A DNA stretch of 64,000 nucleotides from Balanoglossus misakiensis (lineage: Eukaryota > Animalia > Hemichordata). The position numbers and the translations under genes were made by a program. Within the stretch, counting starts at the first letter, position 1; each line of letters begins with the position of its first letter. The notes beneath the pieces were generated by a model, which was not told where the DNA came from, ran no database searches, and worked only from the letters and a program-made list of their open reading frames with translations. The DNA is taken from positions 289,333 to 353,332 of the forward strand of contig JBECUI020000029.1 in NCBI GenBank assembly GCA_040954595.2. Reading direction: 5' to 3'. Of this stretch, positions 1 through 32,434 are shown piece by piece.

Positions 1-180
1 ACATGCACTAAAGCGCCCTCACTGCTGGGTGTGTTGTATGGTCTTTAACCCTGTTTCAAATTAGAGTACTTTCTGCAATTTCAAGACAGATCTTACGTGC
101 CATTGGAGAGCTCCATTGACTGGTCATTCATACTGTTTTCATTCATTCATTGCGGCATCAATATATTTTATCTATTCTAG

Positions 181-331
181 CCAAAGAGCTTGGCACCTGT
201 TGAAATGAACTCATCTGCTGTGGGCCAGTTTATTGGTGGCAGTTGAGCTGAGGAGAGCACCTTCCTTCCCGGCACGCCACCAAGTAAAGTTCCACGCCGC
301 CCACCACAGATGCCAGCATTCATTCATGCGA
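181..331 (+). ncRNA. Putative non-coding structured exon present in every monomer (representative copy)
   Basis: Preceded by TTTTATCTATTCTAG (acceptor-like) and followed by GTGAGT at 332 (consensus donor). All three + frames contain stops. Nested inverted repeats at 212-225/299-312 and 229-240/276-288. Confidence 0.5.
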
Positions 332-364
332 GTGAGTGTAATTGCAAATTTGCCTATTCTAGAT

Positions 365-541
365 CTGTAATGGAAATGGAGAAAGTACCTTATATTTTCT
401 GTAAAATAGACATTTAATTGGCAAGCCGTCCTGCATCAATTATTAATTGTGTACATGCACTAAAGCGCCCTCACTGCTGGGTGTGTTGTATGGTCTTTAA
501 CCCTGTTTCAAATTAGAGTACTTTCTGCAATTTCAAGACAG
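365..541. mobile_element. 177-bp non-autonomous TIR element (MITE-like) in every 452-bp monomer (representative copy)
   Basis: Left end CTGTAATGGAAATGGAGAAAGTAC versus reverse complement of right end CTGTCTTGAAATTGCAGAAAGTAC (imperfect TIR). Flanked by AT on both sides within AGAT...ATCT. Absent from 274/275/265-bp monomers. Confidence 0.8.
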
Positions 542-3500
542 ATCTTACGTGCCATTGGAGAGCTCCATTGACTGGTCATTCATACTGTTTTCATTCATTC
601 ATTGCGGCATCAATATATTTTATCTATTCTAGCCAAAGAGCTTGGCACCTGTTGAAATGAACTCATCTGCTGTGGGCCAGTTTATTGGTGGCAGTTGAGC
701 TGAGGAGAGCACCTTCCTTCCCGGCACGCCACCAAGTAAAGTTCCACGCCGCCCACCACAGATGCCAGCATTCATTCATGCGAGTGAGTGTAATTGCAAA
801 TTTGCCTATTCTAGATTCTTACGTGCCATTGGAGAGCTCCATTGACTGGTCATTCATACTGTTTTCATTCATTCATTGCGGCATCAATATATTTTATCTA
901 TTCTAGCCAAAGAGCTTGGCACCTGTTGAAATGAACTCATCTGCTGTGGGCCAGTTTATTGGTGGCAGTTGAGCTGAGCAGAGCACCTTCCTTCCCGGCA
1001 CGCCACCAAGTAAAGTTCCACGCCGCCCACCACAGATGCCAGCATTCATTCATGCGAGTGAGTGTAATTGCAAATTTGCCTATTCTAGAATCTTACGTGC
1101 CATTGGAGAGCTCCATTGACTGGTCATTCATACTGTTTTCATTCATTCATTGCGGCATCAATATATTTTATCTATTCTAGCCAAAGAGCTTGGCACCTGT
1201 TGAAATGAACTCATCTGCTGTGGGCCAGTTTATTGGTGGCAGTTGAGCTGAGGAGAGCACCTTCCTTCCCGGCACGCCACCAAGTAAAGTTCCACGCCGC
1301 CCACCACAGATGCCAGCATTCATTCATGCGAGTGAGTGTAATTGCAAATTTGCCTATTCTAGATCTGTAATGGAAATGGAGAAAGTACCTTATATTTTCT
1401 GTAAAATAGACATTTAATTGGCAAGCCGTCCTGCATCAATTATTAATTGTGTACATGCACTAAAGCGCCCTCACTGCTGGGTGTGTTGTATGGTCTTTAA
1501 CCCTGTTTCAAATTAGAGTACTTTCTGCAATTTCAAGACAGATCTTACGTGCCATTGGAGAGCTCCATTGACTGGTCATTCATACTGTTTTCATTCATTC
1601 ATTGCGGCATCAATATATTTTATCTATTCTAGCCAAAGAGCTTGGCACCTGTTGAAATGAACTCATCTGCTGTGGGCCAGTTTATTGGTGGCAGTTGAGC
1701 TGAGGAGAGCACCTTCCTTCCCGGCACGCCACCAAGTAAAGTTCCACGCCGCCCACCACAGATGCCAGCATTCATTCATGCGAGTGAGTGTAATTGCAAA
1801 TTTGCCTATTCTAGATCTGTAATGGAAATGGAGAAAGTACCTTATATTTTCTGTAAAATAGACATTTAATTGGCAAGCCGTCCTGCATCAATTATTAATT
1901 GTGTACATGCACTAAAGCGCCCTCACTGCTGGGTGTGTTGTATGGTCTTTAACCCTGTTTCAAATTAGAGTACTTTCTGCAATTTCAAGACAGATCTTAC
2001 GTGCCATTGGAGAGCTCCATTGACTGGTCATTCATACTGTTTTCATTCATTCATTGCGGCATCAATATATTTTATCTATTCTAGCCAAAGAGCTTGGCAC
2101 CTGTTGAAATGAACTCATCTGCTGTGGGCCAGTTTATTGGTGGCAGTTGAGCTGAGGAGAGCACCTTCCTTCCCGGCACGCCACCAAGTAAAGTTCCACG
2201 CCGCCCACCACAGATGCCAGCATTCATTCATGCGAGTGAGTGTAATTGCAAATTTGCCTATTCTAGATCTGTAATGGAAATGGAGAAAGTACCTTATATT
2301 TTCTGTAAAATAGACATTTAATTGGCAAGCCGTCCTGCATCAATTATTAATTGTGTACATGCACTAAAGCGCCCTCACTGCTGGGTGTGTTGTATGGTCT
2401 TTAACCCTGTTTCAAATTAGAGTACTTTCTGCAATTTCAAGACAGATCTTACGTGCCATTGGAGAGCTCCATTGACTGGTCATTCATACTGTTTTCATTC
2501 ATTCATTGCGGCATCAATATATTTTATCTATTCTAGCCAAAGAGCTTGGCACCTGTTGAAATGAACTCATCTGCTGTGGGCCAGTTTATTGGTGGCAGTT
2601 GAGCTGAGGAGAGCACCTTCCTTCCCGGCACGCCACCAAGTAAAGTTCCACGCCGCCCACCACAGATGCCAGCATTCATTCATGCGAGTGAGTGTAATTG
2701 CAAATTTGCCTATTCTAGATCTGTAATGGAAATGGAGAAAGTACCTTATATTTTCTGTAAAATAGACATTTAATTGGCAAGCCGTCCTGCATCAATTATT
2801 AATTGTGTACATGCACTAAAGCGCCCTCACTGCTGGGTGTGTTGTATGGTCTTTAACCCTGTTTCAAATTAGAGTACTTTCTGCAATTTCAAGACAGATC
2901 TTACGTGCCATTGGAGAGCTCCATTGACTGGTCATTCATACTGTTTTCATTCATTCATTGCGGCATCAATATATTTTATCTATTCTAGCCAAAGAGCTTG
3001 GCACCTGTTGAAATGAACTCATCTGCTGTGGGCCAGTTTATTGGTGGCAGTTGAGCTGAGGAGAGCACCTTCCTTCCCGGCACGCCACCAAGTAAAGTTC
3101 CACGCCGCCCACCACAGATGCCAGCATTCATTCATGCGAGTGAGTGTAATTGCAAATTTGCCTATTCTAGATCTGTAATGGAAATGGAGAAAGTACCTTA
3201 TATTTTCTGTAAAATAGACATTTAATTGGCAAGCCGTCCTGCATCAATTATTAATTGTGTACATGCACTAAAGCGCCCTCACTGCTGGGTGTGTTGTATG
3301 GTCTTTAACCCTGTTTCAAATTAGAGTACTTTCTGCAATTTCAAGACAGATCTTACGTGCCATTGGAGAGCTCCATTGACTGGTCATTCATACTGTTTTC
3401 ATTCATTCATTGCGGCATCAATATATTTTATCTATTCTAGCCAAAGAGCTTGGCACCTGTTGAAATGAACTCATCTGCTGTGGGCCAGTTTATTGGTGGC

Positions 3501-6500
3501 AGTTGAGCTGAGGAGAGCACCTTCCTTCCCGGCACGCCACCAAGTAAAGTTCCACGCCGCCCACCACAGATGCCAGCATTCATTCATGCGAGTGAGTGTA
3601 ATTGCAAATTTGCCTATTCTAGATCTGTAATGGAAATGGAGAAAGTACCTTATATTTTCTGTAAAATAGACATTTAATTGGCAAGCCGTCCTGCATCAAT
3701 TATTAATTGTGTACATGCACTAAAGCGCCCTCACTGCTGGGTGTGTTGTATGGTCTTTAACCCTGTTTCAAATTAGAGTACTTTCTGCAATTTCAAGACA
3801 GATCTTACGTGCCATTGGAGAGCTCCATTGACTGGTCATTCATACTGTTTTCATTCATTCATTGCGGCATCAATATATTTTATCTATTCTAGCCAAAGAG
3901 CTTGGCACCTGTTGAAATGAACTCATCTGCTGTGGGCCAGTTTATTGGTGGCAGTTGAGCTGAGGAGAGCACCTTCCTTCCCGGCACGCCACCAAGTAAA
4001 GTTCCACGCCGCCCACCACAGATGCCAGCATTCATTCATGCGAGTGAGTGTAATTGCAAATTTGCCTATTCTAGATCTGTAATGGAAATGGAGAAAGTAC
4101 CTTATATTTTCTGTAAAATAGACATTTAATTGGCAAGCCGTCCTGCATCAATTATGAATTGTGTACATGCACTAAAGCGCCCTCACTGCTGGGTGTGTTG
4201 TATGGTCTTTAACCCTGTTTCAAATTAGAGTACTTTCTGCAATTTCAAGACAGATCTTACGTGCCATTGGAGAGCTCCATTGACTGGTCATTCATACTGT
4301 TTTCATTCATTCATTGCGGCATCAATATATTTTATCTATTCTAGCCAAAGAGCTTGGCACCTGTTGAAATGAACTCATCTGCTGTGGGCCAGTTTATTGG
4401 TGGCAGTTGAGCTGAGGAGAGCACCTTCCTTCCCGGCACGCCACCAAGTAAAGTTCCACGCCGCCCACCACAGATGCCAGCATTCATTCATGCGAGTGAG
4501 TGTAATTGCAAATTTGCCTATTCTAGATCTGTAATGGAAATGGAGAAAGTACCTTATATTTTCTGTAAAATAGACATTTAATTGGCAAGCCGTCCTGCAT
4601 CAATTATGAATTGTGTACATGCACTAAAGCGCCCTCACTGCTGGGTGTGTTGTATGGTCTTTAACCCTGTTTCAAATTAGAGTACTTTCTGCAATTTCAA
4701 GACAGATCTTACGTGCCATTGGAGAGCTCCATTGACTGGTCATTCATACTGTTTTCATTCATTCATTGCGGCATCAATATATTTTATCTATTCTAGCCAA
4801 AGAGCTTGGCACCTGTTGAAATGAACTCATCTGCTGTGGGCCAGTTTATTGGTGGCAGTTGAGCTGAGCAGAGCACCTTCCTTCCCGGCACGCCACCAAG
4901 TAAAGTTCCACGCCGCCCACCACAGATGCCAGCATTCATTCATGCGAGTGAGTGTAATTGCAAATTTGCCTATTCTAGATCTGTAATGGAAATGGAGAAA
5001 GTACCTTATATTTTCTGTAAAATAGACATTTAATTGGCAAGCCGTCCTGCATCAATTATGAATTGTGTACATGCACTAAAGCGCCCTCACTGCTGGGTGT
5101 GTTGTATGGTCTTTAACCCTGTTTCAAATTAGAGTACTTTCTGCAATTTCAAGACAGATCTTACGTGCCATTGGAGAGCTCCATTGACTGGTCATTCATA
5201 CTGTTTTCATTCATTCATTGCGGCATCAATATATTTTATCTATTCTAGCCAAAGAGCTTGGCACCTGTTGAAATGAACTCATCTGCTGTGGGCCAGTTTA
5301 TTGGTGGCAGTTGAGCTGAGGAGAGCACCTTCCTTCCCGGCACGCCACCAAGTAAAGTTCCACGCCGCCCACCACAGATGCCAGCATTCATTCATGCGAG
5401 TGAGTGTAATTGCAAATTTGCCTATTCTAGATCTGTAATGGAAATGGAGAAAGTACCTTATATTTTCTGTAAAATAGACATTTAATTGGCAAGCCGTCCT
5501 GCATCAATTATTAATTGTGTACATGCACTAAAGCGCCCTCACTGCTGGGTGTGTTGTATGGTCTTTAACCCTGTTTCAAATTAGAGTACTTTCTGCAATT
5601 TCAAGACAGATCTTACGTGCCATTGGAGAGCTCCATTGACTGGTCATTCATACTGTTTTCATTCATTCATTGCGGCATCAATATATTTTATCTATTCTAG
5701 CCAAAGAGCTTGGCACCTGTTGAAATGAACTCATCTGCTGTGGGCCAGTTTATTGGTGGCAGTTGAGCTGAGGAGAGCACCTTCTTTCCCGGCACGCCAC
5801 CAAGTAAAGTTCCACGCCGCCCACCACAGATGCCAGCATTCATTCATGCGAGTGAGTGTAATTGCAAATTTGCCTATTTACGTGCCATTGGAGAGCTCCA
5901 TTGACTGGTCATTCATACTGTTTTCATTCATTCATTGCGGCATCAATATATTTTATCTATTCTAGCCAAAGAGCTTGGCACCTGTTGAAATGAACTCATC
6001 TGCTGTGGGCCAGTTTATTGGTGGCAGTTGAGCTGAGGAGAGCACCTTCCTTCCCGGCACGCCACCAAGTAAAGTTCCACGCCGCCCACCACAGATGCCA
6101 GCATTCATTCATGCGAGTGAGTGTAATTGCAAATTTGCCTATTCTAGAATCTTACGTGCCATTGGAGAGCTCCATTGACTGGTCATTCATACTGTTTTCA
6201 TTCATTCATTGCGGCATCAATATATTTTATCTATTCTAGCCGAAGAGCTTGGCACCTGTTGAAATGAACTCATCTGCTGTGGGCCAGTTTATTGGTGGCA
6301 GTTGAGCTGAGGAGAGCACCTTCCTTCCCGGCACGCCACCAAGTAAAGTTCCACGCCGCCCACCACAGATGCCAGCATTCATTCATGCGAGTGAGTGTAA
6401 TTGCAAATTTGCCTATTCTAGATCTGTAATGGAAATGGAGAAAGTACCTTATATTTTCTGTAAAATAGACATTTAATTGGCAAGCCGTCCTGCATCAATT

Positions 6501-9500
6501 ATTAATTGTGTACATGCACTAAAGCGCCCTCACTGCTGGGTGTGTTGTATGGTCTTTAACCCTGTTTCAAATTAGAGTACTTTCTGCAATTTCAAGACAG
6601 ATCTTACGTGCCATTGGAGAGCTCCATTGACTGGTCATTCATACTGTTTTCATTCATTCATTGCGGCATCAATATATTTTATCTATTCTAGCCAAAGAGC
6701 TTGGCACCTGTTGAAATGAACTCATCTGCTGTGGGCCAGTTTATTGGTGGCAGTTGAGCTGAGGAGAGCACCTTCCTTCCCGGCACGCCACCAAGTAAAG
6801 TTCCACGCCGCCCACCACAGATGCCAGCATTCATTCATGCGAGTGAGTGTAATTGCAAATTTGCCTATTCTAGATTCTTACGTGCCATTGGAGAGCTCCA
6901 TTGACTGGTCATTCATACTGTTTTCATTCATTCATTGCGGCATCAATATATTTTATCTATTCTAGCCAAAGAGCTTGGCACCTGTTGAAATGAACTCATC
7001 TGCTGTGGGCCAGTTTATTGGTGGCAGTTGAGCTGAGGAGAGCACCTTCCTTCCCGGCACGCCACCAAGTAAAGTTCCACGCCGCCCACCACAGATGCCA
7101 GCATTCATTCATGCGAGTGAGTGTAATTGCAAATTTGCCTATTCTAGAATCTTACGTGCCATTGGAGAGCTCCATTGACTGGTCATTCATACTGTTTTCA
7201 TTCATTCATTGCGGCATCAATATATTTTATCTATTCTAGCCAAAGAGCTTGGCACCTGTTGAAATGAACTCATCTGCTGTGGGCCAGTTTATTGGTGGCA
7301 GTTGAGCTGAGGAGAGCACCTTCCTTCCCGGCACGCCACCAAGTAAAGTTCCACGCCGCCCACCACAGATGCCAGCATTCATTCATGCGAGTGAGTGTAA
7401 TTGCAAATTTGCCTATTCTAGATCTGTAATGGAAATGGAGAAAGTACCTTATATTTTCTGTAAAATAGACATTTAATTGGCAAGCCGTCCTGCATCAATT
7501 ATTAATTGTGTACATGCACTAAAGCGCCCTCACTGCTGGGTGTGTTGTATGGTCTTTAACCCTGTTTCAAATTAGAGTACTTTCTGCAATTTCAAGACAG
7601 ATCTTACGTGCCATTGGAGAGCTCCATTGACTGGTCATTCATACTGTTTTCATTCATTCATTGCGGCATCAATATATTTTATCTATTCTAGCCAAAGAGC
7701 TTGGCACCTGTTGAAATGAACTCATCTGCTGTGGGCCAGTTTATTGGTGGCAGTTGAGCTGAGGAGAGCACCTTCCTTCCCGGCACGCCACCAAGTAAAG
7801 TTCCACGCCGCCCACCACAGATGCCAGCATTCATTCATGCGAGTGAGTGTAATTGCAAATTTGCCTATTCTAGATCTGTAATGGAAATGGAGAAAGTACC
7901 TTATATTTTCTGTAAAATAGACATTTAATTGGCAAGCCGTCCTGCATCAATTATTAATTGTGTACATGCACTAAAGCGCCCTCACTGCTGGGTGTGTTGT
8001 ATGGTCTTTAACCCTGTTTCAAATTAGAGTACTTTCTGCAATTTCAAGACAGATCTTACGTGCCATTGGAGAGCTCCATTGACTGGTCATTCATACTGTT
8101 TTCATTCATTCATTGCGGCATCAATATATTTTATCTATTCTAGCCAAAGAGCTTGGCACCTGTTGAAATGAACTCATCTGCTGTGGGCCAGTTTATTGGT
8201 GGCAGTTGAGCTGAGGAGAGCACCTTCCTTCCCGGCACGCCACCAAGTAAAGTTCCACGCCGCCCACCACAGATGCCAGCATTCATTCATGCGAGTGAGT
8301 GTAATTGCAAATTTGCCTATTCTAGATCTGTAATGGAAATGGAGAAAGTACCTTATATTTTCTGTAAAATAGACATTTAATTGGCAAGCCGTCCTGCATC
8401 AATTATTAATTGTGTACATGCACTAAAGCGCCCTCACTGCTGGGTGTGTTGTATGGTCTTTAACCCTGTTTCAAATTAGAGTACTTTCTGCAATTTCAAG
8501 ACAGATCTTACGTGCCATTGGAGAGCTCCATTGACTGGTCATTCATACTGTTTTCATTCATTCATTGCGGCATCAATATATTTTATCTATTCTAGCCAAA
8601 GAGCTTGGCACCTGTTGAAATGAACTCATCTGCTGTGGGCCAGTTTATTGGTGGCAGTTGAGCTGAGGAGAGCACCTTCCTTCCCGGCACGCCACCAAGT
8701 AAAGTTCCACGCCGCCCACCACAGATGCCAGCATTCATTCATGCGAGTGAGTGTAATTGCAAATTTGCCTATTCTAGATCTGTAATGGAAATGGAGAAAG
8801 TACCTTATATTTTCTGTAAAATAGACATTTAATTGGCAAGCCGTCCTGCATCAATTATGAATTGTGTACATGCACTAAAGCGCCCTCACTGCTGGGTGTG
8901 TTGTATGGTCTTTAACCCTGTTTCAAATTAGAGTACTTTCTGCAATTTCAAGACAGATCTTACGTGCCATTGGAGAGCTCCATTGACTGGTCATTCATAC
9001 TGTTTTCATTCATTCATTGCGGCATCAATATATTTTATCTATTCTAGCCAAAGAGCTTGGCACCTGTTGAAATGAACTCATCTGCTGTGGGCCAGTTTAT
9101 TGGTGGCAGTTGAGCTGAGAAGAGCACCTTCCTTCCCGGCACGCCACCAAGTAAAGTTCCACGCCGCCCACCACAGATGCCAGCATTCATTCATGCGAGT
9201 GAGTGTAATTGCAAATTTGCCTATTCTAGATCTGTAATGGAAATGGAGAAAGTACCTTATATTTTCTGTAAAATAGACATTTAATTGGCAAGCCGTCCTG
9301 CATCAATTATGAATTGTGTACATGCACTAAAGCGCCCTCACTGCTGGGTGTGTTGTATGGTCTTTAACCCTGTTTCAAATTAGAGTACTTTCTGCAATTT
9401 CAAGACAGATCTTACGTGCCATTGGAGAGCTCCATTGACTGGTCATTCATACTGTTTTCATTCATTCATTGCGGCATCAATATATTTTATCTATTCTAGC

Positions 9501-10845
9501 CAAAGAGCTTGGCACCTGTTGAAATGAACTCATCTGCTGTGGGCCAGTTTATTGGTGGCAGTTGAGCTGAGCAGAGCACCTTCCTTCCCGGCACGCCACC
9601 AAGTAAAGTTCCACGCCGCCCACCACAGATGCCAGCATTCATTCATGCGAGTGAGTGTAATTGCAAATTTGCCTATTCTAGATCTGTAATGGAAATGGAG
9701 AAAGTACCTTATATTTTCTGTAAAATAGACATTTAATTGGCAAGCCGTCCTGCATCAATTATGAATTGTGTACATGCACTAAAGCGCCCTCACTGCTGGG
9801 TGTGTTGTATGGTCTTTAACCCTGTTTCAAATTAGAGTACTTTCTGCAATTTCAAGACAGATCTTACGTGCCATTGGAGAGCTCCATTGACTGGTCATTC
9901 ATACTGTTTTCATTCATTCATTGCGGCATCAATATATTTTATCTATTCTAGCCAAAGAGCTTGGCACCTGTTGAAATGAACTCATCTGCTGTGGGCCAGT
10001 TTATTGGTGGCAGTTGAGCTGAGAAGAGCACCTTCCTTCCCGGCACGCCACCAAGTAAAGTTCCACGCCGCCCACCACAGATGCCAGCATTCATTCATGC
10101 GAGTGAGTGTAATTGCAAATTTGCCTATTCTAGATCTGTAATGGAAATGGAGAAAGTACCTTATATTTTCTGTAAAATAGACATTTAATTGGCAAGCCGT
10201 CCTGCATCAATTATGAATTGTGTACATGCACTAAAGCGCCCTCACTGCTGGGTGTGTTGTATGGTCTTTAACCCTGTTTCAAATTAGAGTACTTTCTGCA
10301 ATTTCAAGACAGATCTTACGTGCCATTGGAGAGCTCCATTGACTGGTCATTCATACTGTTTTCATTCATTCATTGCGGCATCAATATATTTTATCTATTC
10401 TAGCCAAAGAGCTTGGCACCTGTTGAAATGAACTCATCTGCTGTGGGCCAGTTTATTGGTGGCAGTTGAGCTGAGGAGAGCACCTTCCTTCCCGGCACGC
10501 CACCAAGTAAAGTTCCACGCCGCCCACCACAGATGCCAGCATTCATTCATGCGAGTGAGTGTAATTGCAAATTTGCCTATTCTAGATCTGTAATGGAAAT
10601 GGAGAAAGTACCTTATATTTTCTGTAAAATAGACATTTAATTGGCAAGCCGTCCTGCATCAATTATTAATTGTGTACATGCACTAAAGCGCCCTCACTGC
10701 TGGGTGTGTTGTATGGTCTTTAACCCTGTTTCAAATTAGAGTACTTTCTGCAATTTCAAGACAGATCTTACGTGCCATTGGAGAGCTCCATTGACTGGTC
10801 ATTCATACTGTTTTCATTCATTCATTGCGGCATCAATATATTTTA

Positions 10846-11269
10846 CAGCCGAAATTATGAAAGGTCGCCGATTCAATATGTGATCTAGACGTCCTGTGTG
10901 CACTGAACACACGATGTGTTTATCTAACACAAACAACAGAACCTCTCATAAAAGAGATGCGGTATCATTAGACTAATTACAGATGGTAGTCTGGAAACAC
11001 GCTCCCCCTCAGAGAGAGTTGTTTACTTGGGTACGATGTCAAAGTTTAATCTCAAAGTGTATACGCTTTATGTTGAGAGTGTACCCAAGTAAACAACTCT
11101 CTCTGAGGGGGAGCGTGTTTCCAGACTACCATCTGTAATTAGTCTAATGATACCGCATCTCTTTTATGAGAGGTTCTGTTGTTTGTGTTAGATAAACACA
11201 TCGTGTGTTCAGTGCACACAGGACGTCTAGATCACATATTGAATCGGCGACCTTTCATAATTTCGGCTG
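10846..11269. mobile_element. 424-bp MITE with 189-bp terminal inverted repeats and TA target-site duplication (Tc1/mariner-type)
   Basis: CAGCCGAAATTATGAAAGG...CCTTTCATAATTTCGGCTG. Arms 10846-11034 and 11081-11269 with a 46-bp spacer. TA at 10844-45 and 11270-71; the empty site TTTTATCT is seen in the other monomers. Confidence 0.95.
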
Positions 11270-11383
11270 TATCTATTCTAGCCAAAGAGCTTGGCACCTG
11301 TTGAAATGAACTCATCTGCTGTGGGCCAGTTTATTGGTGGCAGTTGAGCTGAGGAGAGCACCTTCCTTCCCGGCACGCCACCA

Positions 11384-13190
11384 AGTACAGTTCCACGTGC
11401 ATTCCTGGCCCTGGTTTTATTTATGTTTACAGACAATATTGCATTTTTGTACAAGTATTTTAATCAACTATAAATTTTGAATGTGTCATTTACCTGAACC
11501 GGTCATGTTGACCAGAATGATACATTTCTGCCTTCACTCACCCTATAAATATGTGATTGAGACATAGGTCATTTGCATAAGCTAACATACCAGAAAGTAA
11601 GCATATCTGTTGTTTTCCCTGTGTCACTGCCATCAAAGTAAAAATTAGACGTTGTGTAGAGCAAACTCCAATTTTTTGTTCTCAATAAACATGGATGAAT
11701 TACATAGAATGTGTTTGTTGTTTACAGTCTTTAAATGACACATTAGATTATGCACTTTACAAAACGTTTCTGAGAAACAAGTGACTAACTAGTTTCTTTC
11801 CACTGTGGCCAACGTGGTTCACTGTTTGTGTCAGAATCTCTCTGTTTTGCAAGGATTTTGAAATCATAGTGGTGACATGCATAGTGAAAATCAGCTACTT
11901 TCAAATGTCCGTCATGTTCATGCTGTAATTGAATTTTCAAAGCTGGGCTGGCGTGTTTTTTCTTATTTACATAAGTATCACACTTTATACATGTATCTTC
12001 ATGGGGTTTTTTGAGTCCCGTATTTAGGTCCTCTCTCACAATTTTACGAAATATCGTATAACTGACAGTTGTTCTTCCCAGAAGAGATTGGTTGGTTATG
12101 AACTCTCGGTGTAACTGCGATATACTGTGGGCCGGCGCCAGGTACGGTTTAAATCGAGGATTCCTGCAGTAGTGAGATTCTACAATTCTGTGCCTGCGTA
12201 CGTGTTCAGTGATATCAGTCAGCAAATTTGGATTGAGTTTCCGACGATGCCCTTTGTGTCGGCCCCTTGCATCTGGCATCAGACCAGTAAAGTTCCATGT
12301 GCATTCCTGGCCCTGGTTTTATTTATGTTTACAGACAATATTGCATTTTTGTACAAGTATTTTAATCAACTATAAATTTTGAATGTGTCATTTACCTGAA
12401 CCGGTCATGTTGACCAGAATGATACATTTCTGCCTTCACTCACCCTATAAATATGTGATTGAGACATAGGTCATTTGCATAAGCTAACATACCAGAAAGT
12501 AAGCATATCTGATGTTTTCCCTGTGTCACTGCCATCAAAGTAAAAATTAGACGTTGTGTAGAGCAAACTCCAATTTTTTGTTCTCAATAAACATGGATGA
12601 ATTACATAGAATGTGTTTGTTGTTTACAGTCTTTAAATGACACATTAGATTATGCACTTTACAAAACGTTTCTGAGAAACAAGTGACTAACTAGTTTCTT
12701 TCCACTGTGGCCAACGTGGTTCACTGTTTGTGTCAGAATCTCTCTGTTTTGCAAGGATTTTGAAATCATAGTGGTGACATGCATAGTGAAAATCAGCTAC
12801 TTTCAAATGTCCGTCATGTTCATGCTGTAATTGAATTTTCAAAGCTGGGCTGGCGTGTTTTTTCTTATTTACATAAGTATCACACTTTATACATGTATCT
12901 TCATGGGGTTTTCTGAGTCCCGTATTTAGGTCCTCTCTCACAATTTTACGAAATATCGTATAACTGACAGTTGTTCTTCCCAGAAGAGATTGGTTGGTTA
13001 TGAACTCTCGGTGTAACTGCGATATACTGTGGTCCGGCGCCAGGTACGGTTTAAATCGAGGATTCCTGCAGTAGTGAGATTCTACAATTCTGTGCCTGCG
13101 TACGTGTTCAGTGATATCAGTCAGCAAATTTGGATTGAGTTTCCGACGATGCCCTTTGTGTCGGCCCCTTGCATCTGGCATCAGACCAGT
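11384..13190. repeat. 902-bp tandem duplication inside the cassette
   Basis: 11384-12285 repeats as 12286-13187 with a few substitutions. AGT microhomology at the join (12286-88). ORF ends 11785 and 12687 differ by 902. Confidence 0.97.
11785..12279 (-). pseudogene. 5'-truncated duplicate of the transposase N-terminal-half ORF (164 aa)
   Basis: Matches the last 164 aa of the 12687 ORF apart from D>A and R>K. Created by the 902-bp duplication. Confidence 0.85.
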
Positions 13191-13643
13191 TGAACAGTGC
13201 ATCATTTTGCTTAGAACGGTTCTAGTCCGCCTCTCACTAATGCCAAATAATTTCAGGAATGCATTTTTGCAGACAGTAACCGTTTCACCGCCTTCATTCA
13301 CCAGGTGATAACGAACCGATTTCTTGTGTGACTTCATCTGCATATCCATCAGTTTGTAGAGCATCAAGTTCTGTTCATTATACACGCGACCATCAAAATA
13401 TTTTCTCGTGGTGCCTAAAACATGCGTACTCCCAAGCTTCCGCAGACAATTCCCTTGAACGCAGGCGCATTCCAAGGAAAGACTGTCAATATCTGGAAAA
13501 GGGCGATTTTTCCTTGGTTTTTGTCTCGGACACGTCTTTTTAGAATTCCTACGTGGCTTGTTGGCTCGAGCTGACAGTTCGGTTCTGCGTTGCTGCCACA
13601 CAGGAATGGGTTCCCACGCATAAGCAACTCCCCGGCAGGCCAT
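12687..13643 (-). CDS. Transposase N-terminal half (Sola1/DUF7869-like; putative DNA-binding and CxxC region)
   Basis: Motifs VCKNAFLKLFGIS, DARGRH, ESHYCR...YL, VSYTIFRKI, KPHEDTCIKCD are typical of the region preceding the catalytic core in this family. First ATG at 13643; intact frame. Confidence 0.8.
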   Translation of the reverse strand: MACRGVAYAWEPIPVWQQRRTELSARANKPRRNSKKTCPRQKPRKNRPFPDIDSLSLECACVQGNCLRKLGSTHVLGTTRKYFDGRVYNEQNLMLYKLMDMQMKSHKKSVRYHLVNEGGETVTVCKNAFLKLFGISERRTRTVLSKMMHCSTGLMPDARGRHKGHRRKLNPNLLTDITEHVRRHRIVESHYCRNPRFKPYLAPDHSISQLHREFITNQSLLGRTTVSYTIFRKIVREDLNTGLRKPHEDTCIKCDTYVNKKKHASPALKIQLQHEHDGHLKVADFHYACHHYDFKILAKQRDSDTNSEPRWPQWKETS

Positions 13644-13690
13644 GGTCACAGCTGAAGTATTTGTTCAAGTACTGACTGACTAAACGCGGC

Positions 13691-14824
13691 ATGGAACAAA
13701 CGAACGAACGACTTCACGTTCGGAAAAAAAATCGTTGCGAGCTGTTGGGTGCATGCCTCTATAGTTGTCGGCAACCGTTCTTTTTTATTGCTAAACAATG
13801 CTGTCAGAGCATGGAAGGTGTGGTGGAAAACGAACAGAGGTTTTGTACGACCAACGATTGGATGGTGCTACATATGGACTTCCACAAGTCATTGCCGGTT
13901 CCTAAACTCAGCTCTGAAGACTTTTACTTTAAATCGAAATTGCAAATGAAGCTCCTTGGAATTTACAACGGGACAACGGAAAAGATGCATTGTTATGTAT
14001 GGACAGAGCTCGATAGCAGAAAGTCTCCCGATGAAGTTATTACCTGTCTAAATCACTTTTTTTATAACTCGGGTGTGACCAGCAGACATGCAGTTATTTA
14101 CAGCGACAACTGCCGTGCCGAATTCAAGTGTGGGAAGTTAATGTTTTACTATGACTATCTGTTACGAAAGGGCGTGTTTCGACGAATTGACTATAAAACT
14201 CTTGTGGCTGGACACACGTACTCCACCTGTGACCGAGTTTTTGCGTCCATTGAAAGGCATGCAAGTCGTTTCCAGAGTATAGAGACACCTCACGATTGGA
14301 CATCTGTGATTCGAGGATCTTCTCTGAATGGGAACATTGGAGTTACGGAGATGACTCACAGAGACTTTTTCAATTATTCTGATTTCCTGAAAAATGAGTA
14401 CGTTGTGCGTTATGCAGATACAAACAATGTAACTTTTTACTACCAAGCCATGCACTATTTTAATTTTGGAGAAGGAGAAAGGCTTGATACCGACGGCAAC
14501 CTCAGAACATTTAGTCATGCAGATAAAGTTTGGGTGAGAACATCTCTAGATCCAAGCGAGACCCCGATTGTAGTCGACTTTAGAAAGAAGAAGCAGAACC
14601 GGCGTTTACAAGATTGTACGCTGAACAAACTTTATCAGGAACGTCGACCACTGGCGAGCAAAGTTTGGCGGGATCTTCAGAGTTTAGCCAAAAATTACCT
14701 GTCTCCGGAGGCAATAGAATTTTATAGGAATCTACCGCTTCAGGAGAGTAGTGGCACCTCTGCAGACCCGTACGCCTTTCATGATGATGACGACGACGAT
14801 GATGATGATATGGGCGGTGGTTGA
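13691..14824 (+). CDS. Transposase catalytic half (RNase H-like DDD core, Sola1/DUF7869-like)
   Basis: Motifs HMDFHKSLPVP, CYVWTE...SPDEVITCL, IYSDNC, GHTYSTCDRVFASIE; acidic tail; AATAAA overlaps the stop (14824-14829). The true start may be ATG 13811. Confidence 0.85.
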   Translation: MEQTNERLHVRKKNRCELLGACLYSCRQPFFFIAKQCCQSMEGVVENEQRFCTTNDWMVLHMDFHKSLPVPKLSSEDFYFKSKLQMKLLGIYNGTTEKMHCYVWTELDSRKSPDEVITCLNHFFYNSGVTSRHAVIYSDNCRAEFKCGKLMFYYDYLLRKGVFRRIDYKTLVAGHTYSTCDRVFASIERHASRFQSIETPHDWTSVIRGSSLNGNIGVTEMTHRDFFNYSDFLKNEYVVRYADTNNVTFYYQAMHYFNFGEGERLDTDGNLRTFSHADKVWVRTSLDPSETPIVVDFRKKKQNRRLQDCTLNKLYQERRPLASKVWRDLQSLAKNYLSPEAIEFYRNLPLQESSGTSADPYAFHDDDDDDDDDMGGG

Positions 14825-15323: not shown

Positions 15324-16664
15324 ATGGCTAGCTGGCGCAGGAAGAGACAAGGCAATGTGCGGTCTGTAATCAACGAACGGCACCGCTCAGTTCAGTGTCC
15401 CTTTCTTCAAAAGTGGATCGGTGAGCAATTGGTATTTTCAGGTCGTTCAGAGGATGAAGTCCAGTCCAGTACTGTATTTGAGAGCTACAAATGTTGGGTT
15501 GAAAACTATTCGTCGGCGGACAATCAAGTAATGATTATGGTTACTAAAGCTCGATTTTTCAAGGTGAGAATGATCGCATTTTTCTTTCCCCCCCCCCCCT
15601 CCCTCCCTCCCTCCCTCCCCCAAGGGACTCGTTTTCTGTCTCTTTTAAACCTGTAACTTAACGAAAAGGAAGTTTTTCACATATCTCTTCGTTGACACTA
15701 TAGCAATTTGGAGCGCGGATGCTTCAAGAGAAGAGCGTTACCAAATCAAAGTCGGCCGGGGTTAATATTTATAGAGGTGTTCGTCTGAAAGCTGGTTCGC
15801 GAAGAATCTCAACGGGGAAACCTGAGCACAGTGTACTTCAGACCAGGGCAAGGGCATTTCTTGATGACGCCAGCGTGACCGTTCCGATCGAGGTAAGAAT
15901 GGTGTTTTGTTTGGACTAGGACAATAGAACGTTGCAATGAGTGTGTCAATGGGTGTCCAAGTGCAAACGTGGTCTGCTTCTGTCCACAAATGCCATTAAT
16001 TTTTGGCAGGATTTATAAAATTGTCAATGAAGAATACAAAAATGAAAAACAACAGTTAATAGCAAACTGGTAGGATTGCAAGGGCTTGTAAAACGGTACA
16101 CACTGTACCAGGAAGTTTGCAACACTAATGAAGAATGTATATGATATATTTAGGTGAGAACTGTTCGCGATCGCCGGGACGCAGGACGGTGCGCGTTTTC
16201 GACGAGGGATATTCAAGCCTGGGACGTCGTCTGCGAATACCGGGGCACGGTTATTAGCGTTGAAGAAGCTAGTCGGCGTGATGAGCTTTACAGGGCAGAG
16301 GGGAAACGACCACGCATGTTCCATCTCTACATTGGAAAGAGACACGTTGTGTGAGTGTATCACTTAGTCGAATATATGGTCATATATTGCAAAGCATCTG
16401 TCGAAATAGAAAACGTAATATTGTCTATATTTTCCTCATTAACGCAGCATTGACGGATACGATGTCCCAGCCGGTGAAGAAAATTTAGCAGGCCTAATAA
16501 ATCACAGTCAGCAGAACGCCAACTTGGTACCGGTTCGGATCGGAGAGCGCCTGGTTTTCTTTGCAACCAGGAATCTTTGTCAGGGAGTAGAGCTTTTGTA
16601 TGATTACGGTGACGGGGGTGAAGAGGATTTCTTCAGTGGTTCTCAAACTTTTCCTGAAAATTAA
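15324..16664 (+). CDS. Spliced SET-domain protein (SETD8/PR-Set7-like) with N-terminal winged-helix-like region; exons 15324-15563, 15704-15892, 16154-16350, 16448-16664; 280 aa
   Basis: Three GT-AG introns with matching phases (0, 0, 2) give one open frame. SET motifs GRCAFSTRDI, VCEYRG, IDG, LAGLINHS, ELLYDYGD. Confidence 0.9.
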
Positions 16665-17570: not shown

Positions 17571-17936
17571 ATGGCGGCCAAGCTCAACTGCATATCAGAT
17601 AATGCCAAGGAGCGTTTGAGAGGCATCCTCGCCAGAAGGAGTCGCGTTTCCGGTGACTGTGTGCTCTGGACGGGTGCAGCTTGTCGAAACGGCTATGGCT
17701 CTATTACGTTCAGAGATGAGAACACTCTAACCGCCTATGTCCATCACATTGCACTCCTAATTAACGGAGTGCAATTGGTGGGCAGGCGGTTAGAGTGTTC
17801 TCATCTTTGCAACGAAAAGCTATGCATCCGCCCAGAGCACATTGTCCAGGAAACGCGACTCCTAAACATTTCACGAAAGACGTGCTTTAAATCCCCAAAA
17901 GGGGAGTGTCACCACGATCCCAGGTGCCTAAGGTGA
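17571..17936 (+). CDS. His-Cys box / His-Me finger endonuclease (zinc-binding loop homing-endonuclease type)
   Basis: CVLWTG...GYG, YVHH, SHLCNEKLCIRPEHI...E...N.SRKTC...CHHDPRC. ATG at 17571. The stop lies within AG|GTGAGT, a possible splice donor. Confidence 0.85.
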   Translation: MAAKLNCISDNAKERLRGILARRSRVSGDCVLWTGAACRNGYGSITFRDENTLTAYVHHIALLINGVQLVGRRLECSHLCNEKLCIRPEHIVQETRLLNISRKTCFKSPKGECHHDPRCLR

Positions 17937-18844: not shown

Positions 18845-19250
18845 AAAAACAGAACACAACTTGTCTGCAACATGATGCTGGAGGTGACACATGACAGAGA
18901 AGTGGATCCGCGTTGTCAACACAGATGCCAGCATTCAAAAGGGGAGTGCCACCTGCTAAAATCAACTCATCTGCTGTTGGCCCATTTTACCTGTGGCAAC
19001 TGTTCAGAGGAGACAACGTTTATTCCGTGCAAGCCAACACGCAATGTTGGGGTCTACCTGTCAACACAGATGCAAGCATTCATGTGAGTGAGTATCAGGA
19101 CTGACCTTGTATTTGCTGAATAATTCATAATGCCTATTTTAGAATTCTTAGAGGCATTTGGAGTTCATTGCCTGGTCAACCAAACTACACCCCTTAACAG
19201 CTGAAACAAAATGCGTATTGTGTTCATTCATTCATTGCATCAATATATAT
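18845..19250 (+). other. Diverged homolog of the satellite monomer (exon 18845-~19087 plus intron-like sequence)
   Basis: Shares CACCTG..AAAT.AACTCATCTGCTGT.GGCC, CACAGATGC.AGCATTCAT, GAGTGAGT, TGCCTATT.TAGAATTCTTA and TTCATTCATTCATTGC with the monomer, in the same order. Acceptor TTTCTTCACCCAG at 18844. Confidence 0.85.
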
Positions 19251-19555: not shown

Positions 19556-22500
19556 AAGTACCTTATATTTTCTGTAAAATAGACATTTAATTGGCAAGCC
19601 GTCCTGCATCAATTATTAATTGTGTACATGCACTAAAGCGCCCTCACTGCTGGGTGTGTTGTATGGTCTTTAACCCTGTTTCAAATTAGAGTACTTTCTG
19701 CAATTTCAAGACAGATCTTACGTGCCATTGGAGAGCTCCATTGACTGGTCATTCATACTGTTTTCATTCATTCATTGCGGCATCAATATATTTTATCTAT
19801 TCTAGCCAAAGAGCTTGGCACCTGTTGAAATGAACTCATCTGCTGTGGGCCAGTTTATTGGTGGCAGTTGAGCTGAGGAGAGCACCTTCCTTCCCGGCAC
19901 GCCACCAAGTAAAGTTCCACGCCGCCCACCACAGATGCCAGCATTCATTCATGCGAGTGAGTGTAATTGCAAATTTGCCTATTCTAGATCTGTAATGGAA
20001 ATGGAGAAAGTACCTTATATTTTCTGTAAAATAGACATTTAATTGGCAAGCCGTCCTGCATCAATTATTAATTGTGTACATGCACTAAAGCGCCCTCACT
20101 GCTGGGTGTGTTGTATGGTCTTTAACCCTGTTTCAAATTAGAGTACTTTCTGCAATTTCAAGACAGATCTTACGTGCCATTGGAGAGCTCCATTGACTGG
20201 TCATTCATACTGTTTTCATTCATTCATTGCGGCATCAATATATTTTATCTATTCTAGCCAAAGAGCTTGGCACCTGTTGAAATGAACTCATCTGCTGTGG
20301 GCCAGTTTATTGGTGGCAGTTGAGCTGAGGAGAGCACCTTCCTTCCCGGCACGCCACCAAGTAAAGTTCCACGCCGCCCACCACAGATGCCAGCATTCAT
20401 TCATGCGAGTGAGTGTAATTGCAAATTTGCCTATTCTAGATCTGTAATGGAAATGGAGAAAGTACCTTATATTTTCTGTAAAATAGACATTTAATTGGCA
20501 AGCCGTCCTGCATCAATTATTAATTGTGTACATGCACTAAAGCGCCCTCACTGCTGGGTGTGTTGTATGGTCTTTAACCCTGTTTCAAATTAGAGTACTT
20601 TCTGCAATTTCAAGACAGATCTTACGTGCCATTGGAGAGCTCCATTGACTGGTCATTCATACTGTTTTCATTCATTCATTGCGGCATCAATATATTTTAT
20701 CTATTCTAGCCAAAGAGCTTGGCACCTGTTGAAATGAACTCATCTGCTGTGGGCCAGTTTATTGGTGGCAGTTGAGCTGAGGAGAGCACCTTCCTTCCCG
20801 GCACGCCACCAAGTAAAGTTCCACGCCGCCCACCACAGATGCCAGCATTCATTCATGCGAGTGAGTGTAATTGCAAATTTGCCTATTCTAGATCTGTAAT
20901 GGAAATGGAGAAAGTACCTTATATTTTCTGTAAAATAGACATTTAATTGGCAAGCCGTCCTGCATCAATTATTAATTGTGTACATGCACTAAAGCGCCCT
21001 CACTGCTGGGTGTGTTGTATGGTCTTTAACCCTGTTTCAAATTAGAGTACTTTCTGCAATTTCAAGACAGATCTTACGTGCCATTGGAGAGCTCCATTGA
21101 CTGGTCATTCATACTGTTTTCATTCATTCATTGCGGCATCAATATATTTTATCTATTCTAGCCAAAGAGCTTGGCACCTGTTGAAATGAACTCATCTGCT
21201 GTGGGCCAGTTTATTGGTGGCAGTTGAGCTGAGGAGAGCACCTTCCTTCCCGGCACGCCACCAAGTAAAGTTCCACGCCGCCCACCACAGATGCCAGCAT
21301 TCATTCATGCGAGTGAGTGTAATTGCAAATTTGCCTATTCTAGATCTGTAATGGAAATGGAGAAAGTACCTTATATTTTCTGTAAAATAGACATTTAATT
21401 GGCAAGCCGTCCTGCATCAATTATTAATTGTGTACATGCACTAAAGCGCCCTCACTGCTGGGTGTGTTGTATGGTCTTTAACCCTGTTTCAAATTAGAGT
21501 ACTTTCTGCAATTTCAAGACAGATCTTACGTGCCATTGGAGAGCTCCATTGACTGGTCATTCATACTGTTTTCATTCATTCATTGCGGCATCAATATATT
21601 TTATCTATTCTAGCCAAAGAGCTTGGCACCTGTTGAAATGAACTCATCTGCTGTGGGCCAGTTTATTGGTGGCAGTTGAGCTGAGGAGAGCACCTTCCTT
21701 CCCGGCACGCCACCAAGTAAAGTTCCACGCCGCCCACCACAGATGCCAGCATTCATTCATGCGAGTGAGTGTAATTGCAAATTTGCCTATTCTAGATCTG
21801 TAATGGAAATGGAGAAAGTACCTTATATTTTCTGTAAAATAGACATTTAATTGGCAAGCCGTCCTGCATCAATTATTAATTGTGTACATGCACTAAAGCG
21901 CCCTCACTGCTGGGTGTGTTGTATGGTCTTTAACCCTGTTTCAAATTAGAGTACTTTCTGCAATTTCAAGACAGATCTTACGTGCCATTGGAGAGCTCCA
22001 TTGACTGGTCATTCATACTGTTTTCATTCATTCATTGCGGCATCAATATATTTTATCTATTCTAGCCAAAGAGCTTGGCACCTGTTGAAATGAACTCATC
22101 TGCTGTGGGCCAGTTTATTGGTGGCAGTTGAGCTGAGGAGAGCACCTTCTTTCCCGGCACGCCACCAAGTAAAGTTCCACGCCGCCCACCACAGATGCCA
22201 GCATTCATTCATGCGAGTGAGTGTAATTGCAAATTTGCCTATTTACGTGCCATTGGAGAGCTCCATTGACTGGTCATTCATACTGTTTTCATTCATTCAT
22301 TGCGGCATCAATATATTTTATCTATTCTAGCCAAAGAGCTTGGCACCTGTTGAAATGAACTCATCTGCTGTGGGCCAGTTTATTGGTGGCAGTTGAGCTG
22401 AGGAGAGCACCTTCCTTCCCGGCACGCCACCAAGTAAAGTTCCACGCCGCCCACCACAGATGCCAGCATTCATTCATGCGAGTGAGTGTAATTGCAAATT

Positions 22501-25500
22501 TGCCTATTCTAGATCTGTAATGGAAATGGAGAAAGTACCTTATATTTTCTGTAAAATAGACATTTAATTGGCAAGCCGTCCTGCATCAATTATTAATTGT
22601 GTACATGCACTAAAGCGCCCTCACTGCTGGGTGTGTTGTATGGTCTTTAACCCTGTTTCAAATTAGAGTACTTTCTGCAATTTCAAGACAGATCTTACGT
22701 GCCATTGGAGAGCTCCATTGACTGGTCATTCATACTGTTTTCATTCATTCATTGCGGCATCAATATATTTTATCTATTCTAGCCAAAGAGCTTGGCACCT
22801 GTTGAAATGAACTCATCTGCTGTGGGCCAGTTTATTGGTGGCAGTTGAGCTGAGGAGAGCACCTTCCTTCCCGGCACGCCACCAAGTAAAGTTCCACGCC
22901 GCCCACCACAGATGCCAGCATTCATTCATGCGAGTGAGTGTAATTGCAAATTTGCCTATTCTAGAATTCTTACGTGCCATTGGAGAGCTCCATTGACTGG
23001 TCATTCATACTGTTTTCATTCATTCATTGCGGCATCAATATATTTTATCTATTCTAGCCAAAGAGCTTGGCACCTGTTGAAATGAACTCATCTGCTGTGG
23101 GCCAGTTTATTGGTGGCAGTTGAGCTGAGGAGAGCACCTTCCTTCCCGGCACGCCACCAAGTAAAGTTCCACGCCGCCCACCACAGATGCCAGCATTCAT
23201 TCATGCGAGTGAGTGTAATTGCAAATTTGCCTATTCTAGATCTGTAATGGAAATGGAGAAAGTACCTTATATTTTCTGTAAAATAGACATTTAATTGGCA
23301 AGCCGTCCTGCATCAATTATTAATTGTGTACATGCACTAAAGCGCCCTCACTGCTGGGTGTGTTGTATGGTCTTTAACCCTGTTTCAAATTAGAGTACTT
23401 TCTGCAATTTCAAGACAGATCTTACGTGCCATTGGAGAGCTCCATTGACTGGTCATTCATACTGTTTTCATTCATTCATTGCGGCATCAATATATTTTAT
23501 CTATTCTAGCCAAAGAGCTTGGCACCTGTTGAAATGAACTCATCTGCTGTGGGCCAGTTTATTGGTGGCAGTTGAGCTGAGGAGAGCACCTTCTTTCCCG
23601 GCACGCCACCAAGTAAAGTTCCACGCCGCCCACCACAGATGCCAGCATTCATTCATGCGAGTGAGTGTAATTGCAAATTTGCCTATTCTAGAATCTTACG
23701 TGCCATTGGAGAGCTCCATTGACTGGTCATTCATACTGTTTTCATTCATTCATTGCGGCATCAATATATTTTATCTATTCTAGCCAAAGAGCTTGGCACC
23801 TGTTGAAATGAACTCATCTGCTGTGGGCCAGTTTATTGGTGGCAGTTGAGCTGAGGAGAGCACCTTCTTTCCCGGCACGCCACCAAGTAAAGTTCCACGC
23901 CGCCCACCACAGATGCCAGCATTCATTCATGCGAGTGAGTGTAATTGCAAATTTGCCTATTTACGTGCCATTGGAGAGCTCCATTGACTGGTCATTCATA
24001 CTGTTTTCATTCATTCATTGCGGCATCAATATATTTTATCTATTCTAGCCAAAGAGCTTGGCACCTGTTGAAATGAACTCATCTGCTGTGGGCCAGTTTA
24101 TTGGTGGCAGTTGAGCTGAGGAGAGCACCTTCCTTCCCGGCACGCCACCAAGTAAAGTTCCACGCCGCCCACCACAGATGCCAGCATTCATTCATGCGAG
24201 TGAGTGTAATTGCAAATTTGCCTATTCTAGATCTGTAATGGAAATGGAGAAAGTACCTTATATTTTCTGTAAAATAGACATTTAATTGGCAAGCCGTCCT
24301 GCATCAATTATTAATTGTGTACATGCACTAAAGCGCCCTCACTGCTGGGTGTGTTGTATGGTCTTTAACCCTGTTTCAAATTAGAGTACTTTCTGCAATT
24401 TCAAGACAGATCTTACGTGCCATTGGAGAGCTCCATTGACTGGTCATTCATACTGTTTTCATTCATTCATTGCGGCATCAATATATTTTATCTATTCTAG
24501 CCAAAGAGCTTGGCACCTGTTGAAATGAACTCATCTGCTGTGGGCCAGTTTATTGGTGGCAGTTGAGCTGAGGAGAGCACCTTCTTTCCCGGCACGCCAC
24601 CAAGTAAAGTTCCACGCCGCCCACCACAGATGCCAGCATTCATTCATGCGAGTGAGTGTAATTGCAAATTTGCCTATTCTAGAATCTTACGTGCCATTGG
24701 AGAGCTCCATTGACTGGTCATTCATACTGTTTTCATTCATTCATTGCGGCATCAATATATTTTATCTATTCTAGCCAAAGAGCTTGGCACCTGTTGAAAT
24801 GAACTCATCTGCTGTGGGCCAGTTTATTGGTGGCAGTTGAGCTGAGGAGAGCACCTTCTTTCCCGGCACGCCACCAAGTAAAGTTCCACGCCGCCCACCA
24901 CAGATGCCAGCATTCATTCATGCGAGTGAGTGTAATTGCAAATTTGCCTATTCTAGAATCTTACGTGCCATTGGAGAGCTCCATTGACTGGTCATTCATA
25001 CTGTTTTCATTCATTCATTGCGGCATCAATATATTTTATCTATTCTAGCCAAAGAGCTTGGCACCTGTTGAAATGAACTCATCTGCTGTGGGCCAGTTTA
25101 TTGGTGGCAGTTGAGCTGAGGAGAGCACCTTCCTTCCCGGCACGCCACCAAGTAAAGTTCCACGCCGCCCACCACAGATGCCAGCATTCATTCATGCGAG
25201 TGAGTGTAATTGCAAATTTGCCTATTCTAGAATCTTACGTGCCATTGGAGAGCTCCATTGACTGGTCATTCATACTGTTTTCATTCATTCATTGCGGCAT
25301 CAATATATTTTATCTATTCTAGCCAAAGAGCTTGGCACCTGTTGAAATGAACTCATCTGCTGTGGGCCAGTTTATTGGTGGCAGTTGAGCTGAGGAGAGC
25401 ACCTTCCTTCCCGGCACGCCACCAAGTAAAGTTCCACGCCGCCCACCACAGATGCCAGCATTCATTCATGCGAGTGAGTGTAATTGCAAATTTGCCTATT

Positions 25501-32387: not shown

Positions 32388-32434
32388 GGTCACAGCTGAA
32401 GTATTTGTTCAAGTACTGACTGACTAAACGCGGC

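Follow-up and report, generated by a model that had tools for sequence, protein, structure and literature searches.

The 64,000-nucleotide stretch of Balanoglossus misakiensis DNA analyzed here (the window) is mostly composed of one tandemly repeated unit, interrupted twice by the same 8-kb cassette. It raises the question of whether the repeat encodes a conserved structured RNA, and how such an RNA would relate to the nuclease gene carried by the cassette. The answer that we tentatively favor is that the repeat arose by amplification of the 3' module of a single spliced RNA rich in hairpins, which would begin in the nuclease gene and limit the nuclease. The unit measures 274 bp, extended to 452 bp by a 177-bp MITE-like insert where this is present. 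A preliminary description had placed more than 100 copies of it in the window, next to a nuclease gene, and both statements hold: we count 126 exon starts (123 whole copies, two cut at cassette junctions and one cut by the window end), divided 27 + 28 + 71 among three arrays, and an I-PpoI-like ORF lies at 17571..17936, in the cassette between arrays.

1..11398, + strand: array 1, 27 exon starts; runs off the window start and finishes in a truncated unit
19556..30142, + strand: array 2, 28 exon starts; starts within a MITE and ends in a truncated unit
38296..64000, + strand: array 3, 71 exon starts; runs off the window end
30143..38295, no strand assigned: second four-gene cassette, with the diverged units U0 and U1; 99.9% identical to the first, nuclease coding sequence identical
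181..331, + strand: exon-like part of the array unit (unit B), 151 nt; acceptor-like TTCTAG before 181, donor-like GTGAGT after 331
332..632, + strand: intron-like remainder of the unit, here in the 452-bp form with MITE; MITE-free units are 265, 274 or 275 bp
204..324, + strand: predicted stem-loop; outer helices 212-217/307-312 and 220-225/299-304, middle helix 229-240/276-288, apical helices 247-255/262-273

That 181..331 is an exon we infer from its splice-like motifs. A protein-coding exon was rejected, given stop codons in all three frames and a frameshift relative to U1. The 126 exon copies fall into 8 sequence classes and are near-identical, arranged in higher-order blocks as in a satellite, so the idea that selection on the RNA drove the amplification is unsupported. 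There is no AATAAA on the + strand of the unit. On the minus strand, where every unit contains an AATAAA, MITE-bearing units combine an acceptor-like site from the MITE with a donor-like site from the unit.

Each exon was proposed to fold into a long stem-loop. Every arm named in the preliminary description was located, and the minimum-energy fold of 204-324 contains all of its helices. At -41.4 kcal/mol, this fold has a z-score of -2.53 against shuffled sequences (3 of 200 shuffles equally good), a value that varies with the chosen ends, from -3.3 for 212-312 to -1.0 for the whole 150-nt exon. As a background, 2 of 55 cassette windows reach z -2.5 or lower, and one of these is the rod-like fold-back of the nuclease gene described below. 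In the tandem context, the pairing probability is 0.98 for the outer helices, which form within each unit, and 0.9 for the middle helix. By the long-duplex criterion for hairpin RNA, the repeat alone is marginal and the nuclease rod qualifies.

The suggested identity as a canonical miRNA precursor fits poorly. Canonical animal pre-miRNAs have a near-continuous stem of about 33-35 bp with a short loop; here the fold spans 121 nt with an 8-nt one-sided bulge, the arms are 73 nt apart, and the upper helices are lost in U1. A search against Rfam gave 0 matches in 1-1200 at E 10; within 10000-21000, neither U0/U1 nor any array unit had a match at E 5. No tRNA or tmRNA was found, and no hammerhead, SECIS, box C/D or H/ACA motif was seen on inspection by eye for the consensus patterns. 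Apart from U0 and U1, the cassette contains no good antisense target of the repeat arms (best 15/21, on the + strand). A weak Rfam score for MIR7486 is accounted for by a 424-bp near-perfect palindrome at 10846-11269 (396/424 positions self-complementary, CAG...CTG ends, TA on both sides). This palindrome is inserted in one unit; it precedes the first cassette copy and is missing before the second.

Conservation of the stem can be assessed with two diverged homologs in the cassette.

18947..19087, + strand: U1, diverged exon homolog, 71% over 151 columns; ends at a donor-like GTGAGT
18858..18937, + strand: U0, a shorter and more diverged unit; 5' arm differing at 2 of 11 positions, 3' arm matching that of U1 at 23/24
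19088..19250, + strand: intron-like homolog; the MITE site, here as AATT, lies in a 19/20 block

In a hand-set register, all 12 outer pairs are kept in U1. Under uniform mutation at the observed rate, this has P 0.002 (P 0.02 for 11 kept pairs), for helices that were chosen post hoc. U0 retains a six-pair helix (6/6) by way of two G-U changes. Across the outer helices of both homologs, no pair is broken; three have become G-U and one has changed on both sides, and the G-U-type changes all favor the + strand. Moreover, of the 18-column blocks compared between the array and U1, those of the two arms are best kept, with 34/36 identical columns compared to 97/138 overall (permutation p 0.039).

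The compensatory change reported earlier is present, in that 222-302 changes from G-C in the array to U-A in U1 and 224-300 from G-C to G-U; a single double change is nevertheless no proof of selection on pairing, as one arises somewhere in 80% of simulations of neutral change. Its register was set by hand next to an alignment gap, which adds three pairs, and the double change is absent from automatic alignments. In the covariation analysis that had been called for, three versions of the unit, all from this window, yield this one double change, and the covariation count, calculated from two sequences only, was equalled by 223 of 500 shuffles. When all 44 predicted pairs are considered, 29 survive automatic alignment to U1 (neutral P 0.32). 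In U1, the basal AAUGAA/UUCAUU helix is short of 2 of its 6 pairs, the middle helix retains 7 of its 12, and the upper stem is the least conserved part.

The homologs also fold poorly. U1 behaves like its shuffles (z -0.47 for the whole exon and -1.58), and U0 has a z of +0.8. In context, the closing helix of U1 forms with the U1 3' arm at a probability of 0.00-0.01 and with the 3' arm of U0 at 0.11-0.16, for both candidate exon ends; the probability reaches 0.54 only if U1 is excised from its context, and the closing helix of U0 stays at 0.0. Since the arms are the best-kept blocks and the U0 helix is intact, yet U1 and U0 fold poorly, a constrained closing helix is plausible, while conservation of the long stem-loop is not established. 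The claim of a conserved structured RNA is thus partly supported, by the arms, the 12 outer pairs of U1, the U0 helix and the extreme hairpin of the upstream nuclease exon; it is unsupported for the stem-loop as a whole, and the evidence for a conserved structure of the repeat is thin.

Further homologs were sought in several ways. A covariance-model search of the cassette for further copies of the unit found none, and a gapped arm-pattern scan of viral and metagenome contigs found no outside homolog of the repeat. One viral-contig match to the pattern reads as RNA-virus polymerase coding sequence, and one metagenome match lies on a bacterial contig with no similarity past the pattern; both were dropped as chance.

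These results bear directly on a possible, though somewhat unlikely, explanation in which the repeat is a satellite passenger: a 3' piece of an element, with a relic or chance inverted repeat, would have been amplified by unequal crossing-over, the stem-loop being functionless and the nuclease rod a separate matter. Satellite DNA can arise from transposon interiors, with near-identical monomers, higher-order blocks and nested MITEs. The near-identical copies in higher-order blocks, the whole-exon z-scores of the array unit and of U1, the pairs kept at the neutral rate, and the double change and covariation score that neutral change or shuffling readily supplies would all be expected from such a passenger. 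So would the homology between the array and U1 that continues through the intron-like part at 75-86%, as the exon is then not specially kept. This explanation leaves aside, however, the preferential retention of the arms and the unbroken outer pairs in U1 and U0, as well as the donor motif found at the same place in U1. Compared to transposon-born satellites, the locus also differs by its exon-intron-like anatomy and by an adjacent older copy that continues the predicted splice path of the gene. Were the repeat no more than a satellite, its origin from the 3' end of a gene would still be recorded in the window, together with an older copy, a MITE and four empty-site classes.

The tentatively favored transcript would begin in the nuclease gene, where the strongest fold of the locus is found.

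17571..17936, + strand: His-Me finger (His-Cys box, I-PpoI-like) nuclease ORF, 121 aa; PF05551, E 2e-13
17637..17864, + strand: rod-like fold-back; 99 pairs, 198/228 bases paired, helices of 26, 15, 11, 10 and 8 bp in three codon registers
11684..11689, + strand: first + strand AATAAA after array 1, a candidate end of the array transcript

I-PpoI is the best match of the ORF both by profile (E 5.9e-10) and by fold, with a pLDDT of 94.8 for the predicted model. Residues S77, H78, H90, E94 and N99 correspond to I-PpoI S97, H98, H110, E114 and N119 with identical spacing (numbering as used in the main text of PMC9587614). The catalytic and zinc-binding residues and the predicted fold identify the product as a His-Cys box, I-PpoI-like His-Me nuclease, for which site-specific DNA cleavage is predicted. 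A nuclease scan of viral contigs revealed no related locus.

The rod is the stronger feature of the locus, compared to the stem-loop of the repeat. The nuclease exon folds with a z of -14.6, and 0 of 100 shuffles were as good. The native coding sequence reaches -191.6 kcal/mol, compared to -101.0 ± 7.3 for 150 synonymous recodings, the best of which attains -118.7 (0/150 close); since the recodings fold far more weakly, the fold is not forced by the protein. Four transposase stretches used as a control gave z-scores of -0.7 to +2.6, with no such excess. Among 240-nt windows from 11401 to about 19680, the rod stands at -145.3 and no other falls below -75.1, and in the spliced model the rod helices have probabilities of 0.98 and 0.99. 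Residues invariant in 17 family members are found on both arms (C30, G35, Y42 and H58; S77, H78, C80, C85 and H90), which, with the three codon registers, argues against a simple inverted duplication or an assembly fold-back. The rod is unchanged in both cassette copies.

As RNA, the + strand of the rod folds to -154.5 with 99 pairs and the other strand to -140.6 with 90 pairs; as DNA, the two strands are nearly symmetric (-89.0 and -83.0). The longest perfect helices oppose variable stretches of the left arm to conserved motifs of the right arm. In our reading, the rod may be a fold-back that was perfected stepwise under protein constraint. A protein-level test of palindromic coding, restricted to relatives no longer than 180 aa (39 of 168), gave the rod-bearing nuclease itself a z of only 0.4, and its positive control thereby failed. 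Double coding of this kind, in which a protein-coding exon keeps its catalytic residues on the two sides of a 99-pair duplex, is rare, and the duplex is by construction complementary to its own mRNA.

In the favored scenario, RNA polymerase II would start in the nuclease gene and transcribe U0/U1 and the array as + strand RNA, with the first AATAAA as the end. The nuclease stop codon is overlapped by a perfect donor-like sequence, AAG|GTGAGT. The next acceptor-like site would open an exon with U0 and U1, whose donor-like end is homologous in place to that of the array unit. The predicted junction is 17932-18846, and the U0-U1 exon would end at 19087 or 19083. If these GTGAGT and TAG motifs are used, the rod would be joined to 27 or more short stem-loops. 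Four GTRAGT hexamers occur on the + strand of the cassette, all at predicted exon ends (SET exon 3, the nuclease and two overlapping ones at U1), that of SET exon 3 being supported by an open spliced frame; because about 5 are expected from composition, only their placing counts. In the spliced model, the nuclease ORF stops at codon 137, ahead of dozens of junctions. The unspliced stop may be the real one, since 5 of 16 aligned relatives end within one residue of it, and an AATAAA at 18458 could end the nuclease mRNA before U0, as a shorter unspliced mRNA.

The rod might then lower nuclease output, either by being diced into siRNAs that target the nuclease mRNA or by preventing translation. 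Nonsense-mediated decay would come on top, as the stop codon would precede many junctions. The short stem-loops would descend from an older structured 3' module (U0, U1 and B) of which the closing helix alone is constrained. Their copy number would result from unequal crossing-over, maybe aided by nuclease cuts or MITE excision, with no need for selection on the RNA.

Besides the nuclease, each of the two cassette copies contains, in this order, a minus-strand ORF, a DUF7869 ORF and a SET gene, with the nuclease last.

12687..13643, - strand: transposase-like ORF with no Pfam family; look-alikes in the Atlas are eukaryotic hypothetical proteins
13811..14824, + strand: DUF7869 ORF, the transposase-like catalytic half (Pfam E 1.4e-14), head to head with the 12687..13643 ORF
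15324..16664, + strand: SET-domain gene (Pfam SET); four exons with GT-AG introns and an open 280-aa frame, splice model checked

From its motifs, we take the minus-strand ORF to resemble the N-terminal half of a DDE transposase. Its 3' end carries a 902-bp tandem duplication (11384-12288 / 12286-13190), which opens with 12 bases of unit sequence. The DUF7869 ORF has two relatives of similar length at 51% and 47%, the latter from Saccoglossus, that start near the same place. Their shared short length and start suggest that the split of the transposase into two ORFs is old, a view based on these two relatives from a search at near lengths. The predicted structure of this ORF has a pLDDT of 38. 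Atlas clusters for the cassette proteins are eukaryotic, which, with the GT-AG introns of the SET gene and the Saccoglossus relative, indicates an animal genome. A DUF7869-alignment scan of metagenome, viral and genome contigs and a SET-exon scan of viral contigs detected no related locus, and a word-indexed protein search at near lengths with the nuclease and the N-half ORF gave no match. No terminal inverted repeats joining the cassette ends were found.

The octamer motifs ATGCAAAT occur at 15193, upstream of the SET gene, and at 18534, upstream of U0, which might give U0/U1 a separate promoter.

The unit varies in length at a single site only, where the MITE-like insert lies.

365..541, no strand assigned: MITE-like insert, 177 bp; imperfect terminal inverted repeats CTGT...ACAG, AT on both sides

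The insert interrupts 70 of the 122 short units and has an AT on either side. The 52 MITE-free sites form four classes, AAT (30), a 9-bp shorter form (11), ATT (6) and AATT (5), and none is a plain AT. By the mechanism described for hAT and CACTA elements, hairpin-type excision of a MITE from an AT duplication yields AATT, AAT and ATT. The empty-site classes look like excision footprints, none of them precise, and are compatible with repeated excision of the hairpin type. In the U1 intron, positions 19131-19150 show the AATT form of the site, 19/20 identical to the AATT-class units and semi-palindromic, which makes them a candidate nuclease or transposase site. The block could be the trace of an ancient insertion, with the MITE later lost from U1 as well, or it may have been retained for a different purpose, for example nuclease cutting.

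These features bear on a possible role at the DNA level, which we consider improbable. The rod and the arms would act as cruciforms, single-strand hairpins or inverted protein-binding sites, and the nuclease would cut a semi-palindromic, AATT-centered site in each unit and so drive unequal crossing-over. The cassette does recur, with long direct repeats between its copies, the single variable site is conserved in U1, and DNA folding shows little strand preference. The AATT, AAT and ATT classes are, however, those expected of hairpin-type MITE excision, for which no nuclease is needed; the G-U-type changes favor the + strand throughout, and the splice-like motifs are left unexplained. A precedent for the DNA-level role would be I-PpoI, which cuts a 15-bp semi-palindrome, together with the induced-crossover model laid out in the main text of PMC9587614. 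For Sola2, PMC3627910 gives 4-bp target duplications; the 2 bp of AT at the MITE differ from these.

Among described elements, KolobokP provides a counterpart of the gene content. As presented in the main text of PMC9587614 (Kojima and Bao 2022), it is an animal element with a DDE-type transposase and an I-PpoI-like His-Me nuclease, and it forms multimers in which an internal region lies between long direct repeats, with induced crossover as the proposed origin. The pairing of transposase and I-PpoI-like nuclease, the multimer form and the spacing of catalytic residues are shared with the present locus. KolobokP has a single Kolobok-type transposase ORF, whereas here DUF7869 is accompanied by a separate head-to-head ORF and a SET gene. 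Its nuclease is encoded on the strand opposite to the transposase, in contrast to the same strand as DUF7869 here, and its 450- or 660-bp LTDRs and short TIRs differ from the arrays of 10 kb or longer and the lack of TIRs at the cassette. The parts of PMC9587614 on the nuclease residues and on induced crossover make no mention of a fold-back in the nuclease gene. How the germ line tolerates a double-strand-break enzyme is a question left open for KolobokP. If a rod feeding RNA silencing is real, it would allow a selfish element to carry such an enzyme in the germ line without death of the host.

In its mode of action, the proposed hairpin-rich transcript would be most like the Drosophila esi-2/hp-CG4068 locus. 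Where PMC11840564 and PMC10317233 describe that locus, it consists of tandem units of ~260 nt that form imperfect hairpins on a common transcript, with fast change in copy number (20, 9, 14 and 10 copies in four species). The present locus resembles it in its tandem units with a predicted hairpin each. The units here differ in carrying splice-like motifs, in numbering 126 in the window and in lying within a transposase-bearing higher-order repeat; in addition, the strongest hairpin is formed by the protein-coding exon that precedes them, and we claim no sequence homology. Dicer products and a target have been shown for the fly locus, compared to predicted hairpins here. If the scenario is correct, tandem hairpin-RNA clusters, described in flies, would also arise within a mobile element of another animal group.

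A broader version of the scenario, which we regard as doubtful, is that of an undescribed animal mobile element with a split DUF7869 transposase, a SET methyltransferase and an I-PpoI-like nuclease. Its catalytic nuclease exon would have evolved to encode both a protein and a 99-pair duplex and be spliced to hairpin exons, with the RNA acting as a brake on, or a partner of, a nuclease that drives tandem amplification of the element itself. Mostly open-access literature, without Repbase, yielded no report of a self-complementary nuclease coding sequence with hairpin RNA or endo-siRNA in a transposon, of a His-Me finger or Sola1 transposase with a SET domain or of DUF7869, or of a satellite with MITE excision footprints.

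The proximity of a nuclease and a structured repeat also invites comparison with HEARO/IscB-omegaRNA and Fanzor, in which, as described in PMC13565253, a transposon-borne nuclease likewise sits beside a structured RNA. Unlike OMEGA systems as outlined there, the locus has no RuvC domain, element-end guide, variable spacer or Rfam match, and its structure sits in the catalytic core of the ORF. Membership in HEARO/OMEGA was rejected, with a single 121-aa domain, identical array interiors and no Rfam match.

We give a small chance to an RNA partner, which would guide or scaffold the nuclease in a HEARO/OMEGA-like manner or offer the SET methyltransferase a repeated docking site. The gene neighborhood would suit such a role, as would a closing helix conserved around interiors of differing length in U0, U1 and B. 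A further hint is that positions 17896-17913, at the end of the nuclease ORF, and 18936-18953, in the U0-U1 linker, have 17/18 bases in common (E 0.2 for the whole cassette, so this may be chance). Identical array interiors offer no spacer diversity, however, and the ORF is a bare 121-aa I-PpoI-like domain of a family that, in the main text of PMC9587614, reads DNA by protein contacts; the repeat has no Rfam match. A tandem miRNA cluster, with each exon giving one mature miRNA from one arm via Drosha and Dicer, is very improbable: the kept blocks are about the length of a miRNA and the spliced-junction form of the repeat is a 78-nt hairpin with z -2.5, but this form drops to a probability of 0.0 when neighboring sequence is included, no Rfam family applies, and the least conserved part is the bulged upper stem.

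The tentatively preferred reading is that of a spliced transcript running from the nuclease gene into U0, U1 and the array, and several minor features were noted along this path. One reading frame across U0-U1 contains DPRC and KGECH, both of which occur in the nuclease tail, maybe by chance. A frameshifted stretch at 19237-19550, with no Pfam match, breaks the U1 intron just ahead of the expected acceptor; its translation resembles the C terminus of a LINE reverse transcriptase. Within the predicted nuclease intron, TTCGGAA-type motifs at 18225-18258 and 18567-18589 are repeated in inverted orientation, with a local fold z of -2.9.
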